From NCBI GenBank assembly GCA_902386255.1, contig CABMII010000138.1:15660-39659 (forward strand): a DNA stretch of 24,000 bases, in the 5' to 3' direction. Source of the stretch: an uncultured archaeon (GTDB lineage Archaea; Halobacteriota; Methanosarcinia; Methanosarcinales; Methanoperedenaceae). The notes under the pieces were generated by a model that was not told the origin of the DNA, ran no database searches, and saw nothing but the letters and a program-made list of their open reading frames with translations. Position numbers and translations under genes: made by a program. Shown one piece after another: positions 18,634 through 20,017 of the stretch (the first letter of the stretch is position 1; every line of letters begins with the position of its first letter).

Positions 18634-19137
18634 TTACTTCCTCCTCAACAGGTTTGACCCGTCGGTACTGACTATGTCTTCCCCCTTTTCCCCTATAGTA
18701 ACGAATTGCTCTGTATTCATGTCATAATCCTTTTGAAGCGGGTGCCCAATCCATCCATCTGGCAGCAGTATCCTTACAAGATTAGGATGACCTGTGAATC
18801 TAATCCCCACAAGGTCATACGTTTCACGCTCAAGCCAGTCAGCCCCTTTCCATAGGGATGTAAGCGAGTCCACTTCGGGTTTATCGTGGTCTGCAATAAC
18901 TTTCAATACGAGATTCTGCTTTTTGTTGTAAGAATAAAAGTTATATACGACTTCAAAATGGTCTTTGTAATCAGTGCCGGTAATCACAGAAAGGTGGTCA
19001 AAACCCATTTCTTTTACTTTCCCGGCGACGTTTAAAAGCTCCTCCTTTTTGATTACAGCCATCGGCTTATTCCCCTGCATGCCTGTACTGACAACTGCGG
19101 CAGGCAGCTTCTGTTTTAACTCGTCAGTAGCGCTCAT
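18634..19137 (-). CDS. fpoC: F420H2 dehydrogenase subunit C (NuoC-type)
   Basis: 167 aa. The NuoC signature is SLTSLWKGADWLERETYDLVGIRFTGHPNLVRILLPD. Confidence 0.9.
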   Translation of the reverse strand: MSATDELKQKLPAAVVSTGMQGNKPMAVIKKEELLNVAGKVKEMGFDHLSVITGTDYKDHFEVVYNFYSYNKKQNLVLKVIADHDKPEVDSLTSLWKGADWLERETYDLVGIRFTGHPNLVRILLPDGWIGHPLQKDYDMNTEQFVTIGEKGEDIVSTDGSNLLRRK

Positions 19138-19402
19138 AAAGCGACACCTCGCTTTATGCGGTATCCGCGTAAACCGATACCCCGGTTTACGTGGTGTTCA
19201 AGTATGCTTTGCATACTTGTCGTTTGAAAGCCGAAACTTCGGCTTGCGCAGTGTTGGGGTATGCGCAGCATACCCCTCGTTTGATAAAACTTTCCTAAAG
19301 TTTTTTGATAAACCTTTCTTAAAGGTTTACGTATGGCTGAGCCGTATGTATCTGCGAAGTAAAGCGGCGCCACGGTTTTTGATGAAACTTTCCTAAAGTT
19401 TT
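19138..19402 (-). repeat. Intercistronic hairpin-array element, long copy (about 9 hairpins) between fpoB and fpoC
   Basis: Back-to-back inverted repeats in plus coordinates:
- 19136-19157 (8 bp stem, loop ACACCT)
- 19168-19191 (9 bp stem)
- 19199-19219 (CAAGTATGC-TTT-GCATACTTG)
- 19228-19245 (AAGCCGA-AACT-TCGGCTT)
- 19256-19276 (GGGGTATGC-GCA-GCATACCCC)
- 19286-19304 (AAAACTTT-CCT-AAAGTTTT)
- 19309-19329 (TAAACCTTT-CTT-AAAGGTTTA)
- 19328-19350 (imperfect)
- 19385-19401 (AAACTTT-CCT-AAAGTTT)

The track's 90-aa ORF (19134..19406) is the frame that runs through this array. Confidence 0.85.
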
Positions 19403-20017
19403 TCATTTATTAAGCCCCCATTTTGCGCCGTATCCTTCGTTCTTGATTTTTTCCCTTAGCTGGATAATGCCGTATAAAAATGCCTCAGGCCGCGGGGGGC
19501 AGCCCGGGATATAGACATCCACAGGTATAATCAAATCCACCCCTTTTAAGACTGCGTAGGACTCAATATACGGCCCGCCTGTTGACGCACAGCTTCCTAC
19601 TGCGATTACCCATTTGGGGTCGGGCATCATTTCATAAAGTTGTTTTACCCTTGGAGCCATCTTTTTTGTAACAGTCCCGGCTACAAACATGAGGTCAGAC
19701 TGTCGCGGGCTTGCCCTGAAAATCTCCATACCGAATCGTGCAATATCATGGTGAGCCATAGCCGTCCCCATCATTTCAATCGCGCAGCAGGCAAGACCCG
19801 AAGTGACCGGCCAGAGGGAACTCAGTCGCGCCCAGTTGAAAACCTGGTCTATCGTTGAAAAGAGAATCATTCCTTCCCTTTCCCTTGCTGCCAGGACGGT
19901 ATTGATAAGCCCCGTATCTTCCAGTTTTTCAAGCGCTGTCACTGGCTTCTTTTTGGCGGGTTTGATTTTTGTGGTATCAATGGTTACTGGATCCACTCTA
20001 AAGCCTCCTTCCTCCAT
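19403..20017 (-). CDS. fpoB: F420H2 dehydrogenase subunit B (NuoB-type, [4Fe-4S] N2-like)
   Basis: 204 aa. NuoB signatures: [20 protein letters not shown] and [10 protein letters not shown]. The 5' end overlaps the fpoA 3' end by 34 nt. Confidence 0.92.

Follow-up and report, generated by a model that had tools for sequence, protein, structure and literature searches.

Palindromic repeat elements at start codons of Candidatus Methanoperedens genes carry open frames that may relay ribosomes to the host gene

Mobile DNA at start codons has been described for MIRUs, the mycobacterial interspersed repetitive units (Supply et al. 1997, as presented in passages of PMC12548453 and PMC3184786), whose own open reading frame (ORF) is coupled at -4 nt with the host gene. 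Passages of PMC3184786 further describe tetranucleotide direct repeats, empty and filled sites, and ORFs that overlap the adjacent genes, and the corresponding passages of both sources give the proposal that this arrangement minimises the effect of the insertion on host gene expression. Here we describe a comparable arrangement in a 24,000-nucleotide stretch of DNA from an uncultured archaeon of the Methanoperedenaceae (contig CABMII010000138.1 of assembly GCA_902386255.1, positions 15,660 to 39,659; hereafter the window), in which hairpin-rich spacers separate fpoB from fpoC and fpoH from fpoI. These spacers belong to a mosaic, non-autonomous family of repeats that is nearly confined to Candidatus Methanoperedens. 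The family is best viewed as the archaeal counterpart to the strategy of MIRUs, built as a mosaic of hairpins. We propose, with moderate confidence, that an ORF carried by each element lets ribosomes cross it and restart on the host gene.

Like MIRUs, the Methanoperedens family is short, dispersed, multi-copy (at least 110 loci) and co-oriented with the adjacent genes. It lies at start codons and intercistronic junctions, has ORFs that end at -4 nt (31/40), and shows tetranucleotide repeats and empty sites. MIRUs, however, are bacterial and belong to GC-rich actinobacteria, whereas the present family is archaeal. MIRUs are typically direct-repeat units of 40-100 bp, often in tandem arrays, whereas tandem copies were found at two Methanoperedens loci only. 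The Methanoperedens family is also a mosaic of palindromes with at least three terminal hairpin types, in which the start codon lies in the last stem and a motif resembling a Shine-Dalgarno (SD) sequence lies in the loop of that stem. The two are likened by function and description and not by sequence; the family would work like a MIRU, and common descent is not suggested.

Other palindromic repeats share part of these features. Repetitive extragenic palindromic (REP) sequences and bacterial interspersed mosaic elements, as parts of PMC2817692 and PMC3733652 describe them, resemble the family in their small palindromic units, their mosaic build with conserved linkers, their operon locations and their high, lineage-specific copy number. 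REPs are, however, extragenic, are not organised as ORFs and are not tied to start codons, whereas the Methanoperedens copies are ORFs that abut starts or lie in frame within genes. A GTAG or CGTC tag and a link to genes of RAYT (Y1) transposases are further marks of REPs; neither was seen in the Methanoperedens family, in which no GTAG-tagged stem occurs among the common hairpins, although no RAYT or IS200-type search was made. Rickettsia palindromic elements (RPEs) and other ORF-bearing MITEs (miniature transposable elements with inverted repeats), namely ERIC/RU, BOX and the Anabaena MITEs, are mobile palindromic repeats whose frame stays open, so that they survive in translated sequence (PMC10969869, PMC3184786). 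The family resembles RPEs in two in-frame intragenic insertions, at the loci labelled L106 and L039 (L-numbers denote loci throughout). RPEs fuse to the host protein, whereas the window copies and most other members form a separate mini-ORF and leave the host protein unchanged. The terminal inverted repeats of classical MITEs were not found on comparison of the 5' end AAAACTTT with the reverse complement of the 3' end, AAAGCGAC, which have only AAA in common; the inverted repeats of the family are its internal hairpins. REP2 of Neisseria differs in that it carries a promoter and acts as a fusion of 5' untranslated region and translational start, with neither a relay ORF nor an ATGA duplication. 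A literature search found no report of such an element for Methanoperedens, and a 2024 review of prokaryotic MITEs does not mention insertion at start codons.

Retranslation of the two spacers bore out the preliminary description, which had read both elements as open from the upstream ATGA to the downstream ATGA. The long copy (19406..19134, minus strand) gives the 90-codon peptide quoted there, with the C-terminal end GYRIKRGVAL before the stop, and the short copy (16372..16289, minus strand) gives 27 codons, MKNFKKVLSKEGYAKHTLYRIKRGVAL, before its stop; the overlaps with the flanking genes were confirmed (Table 1). The ATGA-to-ATGA offsets were recomputed as 269 nt in the long copy and 80 nt in the short copy, the values given earlier, and each is 2 mod 3. 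The assignment of the flanking genes to fpo also agrees with their products, which are subunits of the NuoB, NuoC, NuoH and NuoI types, and with an FpoO gene at 9766-10125 at the end of the operon. Since this FpoO gene is present, the operon is read as fpoABCDHIJKLMNO. The long frame had been estimated to stay open by chance with a probability of about 1%, and 0.58% of dinucleotide-preserving shuffles (n = 20,000) of the long core were open in the relay frame. The remaining five frames of the long copy contain 1-7 stops each. The short core was open in 8.8% of the shuffles, and this copy alone would be compatible with the view that open frames arise by chance in AT-rich palindromic spacers. 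That view is refuted by the shuffles of the long copy together with the counts over the family, in which 39/40 ORFs are intact and 45/46 lengths are multiples of 3, and its probability is next to nil. The decisive evidence for the frame is thus family-wide and does not lie in the two copies of the window.

The family was scanned for exact matches to the 18-nt terminal hairpin AAAGCGAGGTGTCGCTTT with one genome per species, which gave at least 110 loci; the counts below are among the matches listed. Among these, all matches were in Candidatus Methanoperedens genomes or metagenome-assembled genomes (MAGs) save about ten isolated chance matches in bacteria. A search of viral contigs gave no hits. 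The copies are mosaics in which a few hairpin types and conserved linkers occur in many orders and numbers. The set consists of the A and C types (AAAACTTT/AAACCTTT), a family with a 'GTATG' core and covarying stems, type E, and the terminal types H and H'. In total, 320 perfect hairpins of few classes were found in 96 distinct elements. The common modules are 24, 27, 30, 33 or 60 nt long, all multiples of 3, and the elements encode peptides of 11 to 130 residues and carry between one and about ten hairpins. Element boundaries were set by 11-mers common to at least 10 loci, by which rare modules are truncated and some elements overshoot into the 'TAA ATG' flank. Boundary calling with 10-mers common to at least 12 loci was discarded because it was swamped by low-complexity words.

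Open frames and lengths were examined in about 100 copies, and in-frame stops proved rare. In a census anchored on the 5' hairpin only, 40 copies had a start codon directly upstream, and the ORF ran through the whole element in 39 of them. Of these ORFs, 31 end at -4 nt, 5 at +6 nt and 1 at +26 nt relative to a downstream ORF of at least 60 codons. The single broken copy, L037, is 83 nt long, contains an extra A and is followed by a two-codon 'gene', that is, by no real downstream gene. When the distance from the 5' motif (NTGAAAA...) to the TGA was measured without regard to frame, it was a multiple of 3 in 45 of 46 copies, which have about 24 different lengths. The frame is thus kept throughout elements of 33-390 nt with three terminal hairpin types and several reading phases. 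Stops in start-type copies amount to 0.11 per 100 nt in the relay phase, compared with 2.3 and 1.2 in the other sense phases, and nine apparent 'stops' in phase 0 are due to boundary overshoot into the 'TAA ATG' flank. Where the GTATGC stem is longer by 1 bp (+2 nt), an extra 1 nt is found elsewhere in all three cases, in the loop of L064 and L108 and in the 5' A-run of L071. One hairpin is read in two or three phases across architectures, for example as EGYAKHTLY, TTGMQSIPEH and EGVCC...

The terminal hairpins show which property of the frame is invariant. H' has the sequence AAAGGG-GCGTAA-CCCTTT+ATGA and is without a good SD. In the H' copies L192-194, L101 and L110, the stop is the TAA of the loop, 6 nt before the ATG, and the ATGA-to-ATGA offset is 0 mod 3. 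In the H' copies L041, L065, L094 and L107, the element is in a different phase and the stop is the overlapping TGA. The third terminal type, E, closes the frame likewise at the junction of RNase P p30 and Rpp14. The earlier claim that an offset of 2 mod 3 is required therefore holds for both window copies but is not universal, and the invariant is an ORF that runs from the left ATG to the right ATG.

About two thirds of the approximately 100 copies lie at gene start codons with ATGA on both flanks. The expected share is at most 3% for random insertion at ATGA, and at most 11% if only intergenic and start-codon ATGA were tolerated. Of the 118 hairpin matches listed, 74 are followed by NTGA (ATGA 65, GTGA 4, TTGA 5). 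An ORF of at least 50 codons opens at the NTG in 59 of 67 start-type copies, and two more are followed by a tandem second element. Gene starts likewise follow seven further copies in which H is internal and another hairpin is terminal. Copies of the start type have the orientation of the gene that follows them. Gene starts were taken from ORFs and are backed by conserved N-termini and by the empty fpoB/C sites described below. Elements were found at the operon junctions fpoB/C, fpoH/I, RNase P p30/Rpp14 and L15e/RNA-binding. The preliminary description had placed the elements at stop/start junctions, which is correct for both window copies, but most copies lie at ordinary start codons led by an SD. 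Since SD-like motifs occur at the usual distance in 22 of 35 distinct left flanks, the left ATG is taken to be the original start codon of the gene.

The fpoB/C junction is uninterrupted in more than 24 of 32 metagenomic FpoC relatives, where it reads ..AATAAATGAAC.. with the fpoB TGA overlapping the fpoC ATG. Filled sites equal the empty site plus AAAACTTT...GTCGCTTT and a second ATGA. Because the junction of most relatives has a single ATGA, it is concluded that the insertion duplicated this tetranucleotide. In a NuoC tree, the filled sites are split into two or more clades among which empty sites are nested, and this points to recurrent insertion at the same tetranucleotide or to precise excision. 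Occupants of this site have 11, 27, 63 and 90 codons. In the shortest, on a metagenome contig (region L136:543), a 28-nt remnant of a deletion, AAAACTTTAAGAAGCGAGGTGTCGCTTT, lies between two ATGAs and leaves an in-frame ORF of 11 codons, MKNFKKRGVAL. Tandem copies were observed in two loci only (L042:4779-4885 and L078:1882-1985), where one ATGA serves both copies, on the right of the first and on the left of the second; this arrangement suggests that an element inserted again at the regenerated target. Another gene, which starts with MIDTSFFKELDRF, has an element at its orthologous start codon in eight genomes (L005, L016, L034, L036, L038, L048, L063 and L098), and these elements come in seven lengths between 84 and 297 nt. 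All of these elements are in frame; they mostly begin with MKTVAPLYF and are without the usual 5' hairpin A.

Start-codon copies show a 4-bp duplication of ATGA, whereas ATGA is missing from non-start copies, whose flanking repeats vary or are absent. ATGA may therefore be one preferred target, or simply the sole target after which the gene stays viable. A general target duplication of greater length (5-10 bp) was considered and rejected, because the flanks ACGAACT, ATCCGTG and CTTATCTGCG of non-start copies are themselves locally repeated and cannot be read as duplications. Several non-start copies (L018, L024, L028, L076; L069, L096, L055, L073; L056, L093) lie inside locally repeated or palindromic sequence.

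The long copy in the window contains eight perfect hairpins of -1.5 to -14.6 kcal/mol, with a fold z-score of -7.95 against shuffles, and the short copy contains three perfect hairpins with a z-score of -5.87. An inverted-repeat search of the whole window returned overlapping short palindromes only. The sole hit of the element region in Rfam, AS-pc01, was below threshold (24.5 bits against a gathering score of 79, E = 0.38). In the terminal hairpin H, the regenerated start codon ATG is paired with CAT. The motif GAGGTG matches the anti-SD that is generally conserved in 16S rRNA, and presumably does so in this genome. Since the ATG and part of the SD lie inside the stem of H, free initiation at the host gene should be poor, and the combination of GAGGTG with a terminal hairpin that pairs the ATG fits the picture of a ribosome that, having opened the hairpin at the end of the relay ORF, would stop on the ATG while the SD is accessible and make the hand-over there. 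An antisense ORF of 140 codons (window 18974-19396, plus strand) spans nearly all of the long element, and the palindromes probably give rise to it as a side effect. Over the family, no more than 14-32 of 67 copies have open antisense frames.

In the proposed relay, a ribosome that starts at or reaches the left ATG, where the original ribosome-binding site or the upstream stop of the host is kept, would translate through the element and melt its hairpins. It would then terminate on top of the host start codon and reinitiate there, aided by the SD motif of the element itself. The insertion would thus cost the host gene little, and copies that lose the frame would silence the host gene and then be purged by selection. 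The relay peptide would be a by-product, and the palindromes would serve the element at the DNA level, probably in mobilisation. The comparison of frames and lengths over about 100 copies came out in favour of this relay, in which translation and reinitiation are inferred steps. Known couplings give a precedent. ATGA overlaps in Haloferax and E. coli were strictly coupled in 13 of 14 gene pairs, and the share of the SD in this coupling varied by gene pair, whereas the opening of structures around the overlaps by the upstream ribosome was only proposed (Huber et al. 2019, PMC6728339). These overlaps and the leaders of the 'bicistronic design' resemble the elements in the -4 nt overlap, in an SD inside the upstream ORF, in a structure melted by the upstream ribosome only and in a short ORF that solely delivers ribosomes. 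They differ in that they are fixed arrangements of host genes or human designs, whereas the Methanoperedens cassette is a mobile repeat.

Several points weigh against the relay. The SD of the element could allow independent initiation at the host gene with no hand-over. Eight consecutive hairpins of up to -14.6 kcal/mol, as in the long copy, could slow ribosomes. Many copies are orthologous across MAGs and are not independent events, and the copies were found through one exact terminal hairpin, which is an ascertainment bias. The frame was expected to be lost in non-start copies, which served as a control, yet 30 of 34 of these keep that phase open. In-frame intragenic copies could also be the true source of the frame constraint. 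One of these, L106 of a Methanoperedens MAG, is an 81-nt copy at about residues 605-631 of a 901-codon ORF for a class I aminoacyl-tRNA synthetase. Its 27 residues, KLLESFNKRRVWCAIPEHRIKRGVAFS, lie between the catalytic and anticodon-binding domains, and the insertion resembles that of a Rickettsia RPE. The other, L039, is an antisense copy at about residues 118-144 of a 402-codon ORF for a Y-family DNA polymerase (IMS) on the opposite strand, and its 27 residues split the Pfam IMS match in two. These insertions indicate that frame neutrality pays in more than one context.

Since non-start copies are equally open, openness is a family trait that is inherited with the modules, and selection site by site could not be demonstrated. 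The earlier claim that the frame preserves coupling is thus upheld insofar as family copies keep the frame, but it does not hold as a local repair at the two junctions of the window. The same observation underlies an alternative, in which the elements are selfish DNA and nothing more, and the open frame is passively inherited, either from modules that happen to be multiples of 3 or from an RPE-like intragenic past, so that copies at start codons need no translation. This alternative is also in keeping with the in-frame copies L106 and L039 and with the perfect Watson-Crick stems. Variation in sequence is confined to loops and linkers or is mirrored on both stem arms; stem mismatches comprise 4 of the G.U type, 8 of the A/C type and 28 others, compared with 244 perfect stems. 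The idea that the stems are kept as RNA structures was dropped, since single mismatches occur with no G.U bias, and the palindromes therefore look like DNA-level features. A passive legacy would, however, leave unexplained why the host ATG and the regenerated ATG mark exactly the two ends of the ORF in three terminal types and several phases, why every +2 nt change of a stem is matched by +1 nt, why the sole frameshifted copy, L037, has no downstream gene, and why two thirds of the copies are at start codons when at most 11% are expected. We consider this alternative improbable.

A second alternative accepts translation of the spacer and gives it another role. Cover by ribosomes would prevent premature transcription termination or mRNA decay (archaeal polarity, FttA), and the downstream gene would initiate de novo at GAGGTG. 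Polarity linked to FttA on untranslated archaeal RNA is described in a review (PMC12548453), and the SD-like motif of the element is at optimal spacing. The sense strand of 44 distinct start-type elements contains 3 T-runs of at least 5 nt compared with 63 A-runs, and so no oligo-T terminators are added in the direction of the gene; this avoidance of T-runs points to pressure for transcriptional read-through. Free initiation is, however, disfavoured by the hairpin of 10 bp and -12 kcal/mol that locks the ATG and part of the SD, and H' terminal hairpins have no good SD to initiate from. Moreover, the ORF ends exactly at -4 or +6 nt in 36/40 copies, a precision that protection from polarity does not need. 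This alternative has some probability, but a low one.

The mini-ORFs might instead encode functional small basic proteins or regulatory leader peptides. The peptide motifs MKNFxKVLSK at the N-terminus and RIKRGVAL at the C-terminus recur in the family, and the ORFs are annotated as hypothetical proteins; the 90-residue product is on record in public databases as 'Uncharacterised protein [uncultured archaeon]'. The 90-residue peptide gave no match in Pfam or NCBIfam, however, and peptides of 11-130 residues with arbitrary module content are not what a functional protein would suggest. The phase in which the same nucleotides are read changes from copy to copy, and conservation tracks the complementarity of the stems, whereas loops and linkers, and hence residues, vary. 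A function of the peptides is very unlikely.

The relay may be part of a wider strategy. The elements would then form a selfish family with 'translational transparency', which combines integration at the ATGA of start codons with a full coupling cassette, obligatory host coupling, survival in frame within essential genes and a fit to mobilisation of the HUH/Y1 type, and which would be the first such archaeal system. On sequence evidence, we regard this wider proposal as evenly poised. Such a cassette would comprise a frame that crosses the palindromes with no stop, an SD located in the loop of the last hairpin, and a terminal stem in which the regenerated start codon is buried. Perfect palindromes, an orientation-specific target and apparently precise empty sites would fit a single-strand transposase that recognises hairpins (HUH/Y1 type).

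If the relay is true, start codons offer mobile DNA a safe place in bacteria and archaea alike, and this is not a mycobacterial peculiarity. With its dozens of natural variants (11-130 codons, between one and about ten hairpins), the family could reveal in what way ribosomes of archaea unwind stable structures and restart at ATGA overlaps. For annotation, dozens of 'hypothetical proteins' per Methanoperedens genome are in fact repeat elements, and the true gene starts at the right-hand ATG. Variable architectures at orthologous sites could separate strains of this environmentally important methane oxidiser. The inserts at two subunit junctions of the F420H2 dehydrogenase may affect subunit ratios.

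Table 1. Coordinates of the two elements, their hairpins and their host genes in the window
Feature	Position	Strand	Description
fpoB (NuoB family)	19403..20017	-	host gene upstream of long copy
Long element copy	19134..19406	-	relay ORF of 90 codons + TGA; from fpoB-stop/ATG overlap to TGA/fpoC-ATG overlap
Left ATGA of long copy	19403..19406	-	fpoB TGA + relay ATG (19406-19404); one copy of duplicated target tetranucleotide
5' hairpin A, long copy	19385..19401	-	AAACTTT-AGG-AAAGTTT; starts 5 nt past ATG
Module B, long copy	19330..19384	-	peptide TVAPLYFADTYGSAIR; decayed GTATGG-type hairpin, intact versions in other copies
Hairpin C, long copy	19309..19329	-	TAAACCTTT-AAG-AAAGGTTTA
Second A-type hairpin, long copy	19286..19304	-	different codon phase, KTLGKFYQ
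Hairpin, long copy	19256..19276	-	GGGGTATGC-TGC-GCATACCCC, -14.6 kcal/mol
Hairpin, long copy	19228..19245	-	AAGCCGA-AGTT-TCGGCTT
Hairpin, long copy	19199..19219	-	CAAGTATGC-AAA-GCATACTTG
Hairpin E, long copy	19168..19191	-	CGTAAACCG-GGGTAT-CGGTTTACG; terminal hairpin in some other copies
Terminal hairpin H, long copy	19135..19158	-	10 bp, CATAAAGCGA-GGTG-TCGCTTTATG, -12.1 kcal/mol; fpoC start codon in 3' arm
GAGGTG, Shine-Dalgarno-like	19145..19150	-	stem top + loop of H, 7 nt upstream of fpoC ATG
Right ATGA of long copy	19134..19137	-	relay TGA (19136-19134) + regenerated fpoC ATG
fpoC (NuoC family)	18634..19137	-	host gene downstream of long copy
fpoH (NuoH family)	16369..17487	-	host gene upstream of short copy
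Short element copy	16289..16372	-	relay ORF of 27 codons + TGA; between fpoH and fpoI
ATGA pair of short copy	16369-16372 and 16289-16292	-	arrangement as in long copy
Hairpin A, short copy	16350..16368	-	
Hairpin, short copy	16320..16340	-	AGGGTATGC-GAA-GCATACCCT
Terminal hairpin H, short copy	16290..16313	-	contains GAGGTG (16300-16305) + fpoI ATG
fpoI (NuoI family)	15876..16292	-	host gene downstream of short copy

Other features of the window were observed around the elements. Between fpoI and fpoK, where a single fpoJ is expected, two adjacent short ORFs of 81 and 83 codons are present (15382-15879, minus strand), and fpoJ may be split in two. Three tandem 78-nt repeats at 8261-8497, which encode 26-residue units and have 68-79% identity to the reference copy, lie inside a HEAT-repeat/CheX-like ORF (7570-9726, minus strand). 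Upstream of the fpo operon region, 5517-7565 contains two genes, of which one encodes a KaiC-like ATPase (284 aa) and the other has domains of archaellum FlaC and FlaD/E, and two sensor histidine kinase genes are located at 790-4853.

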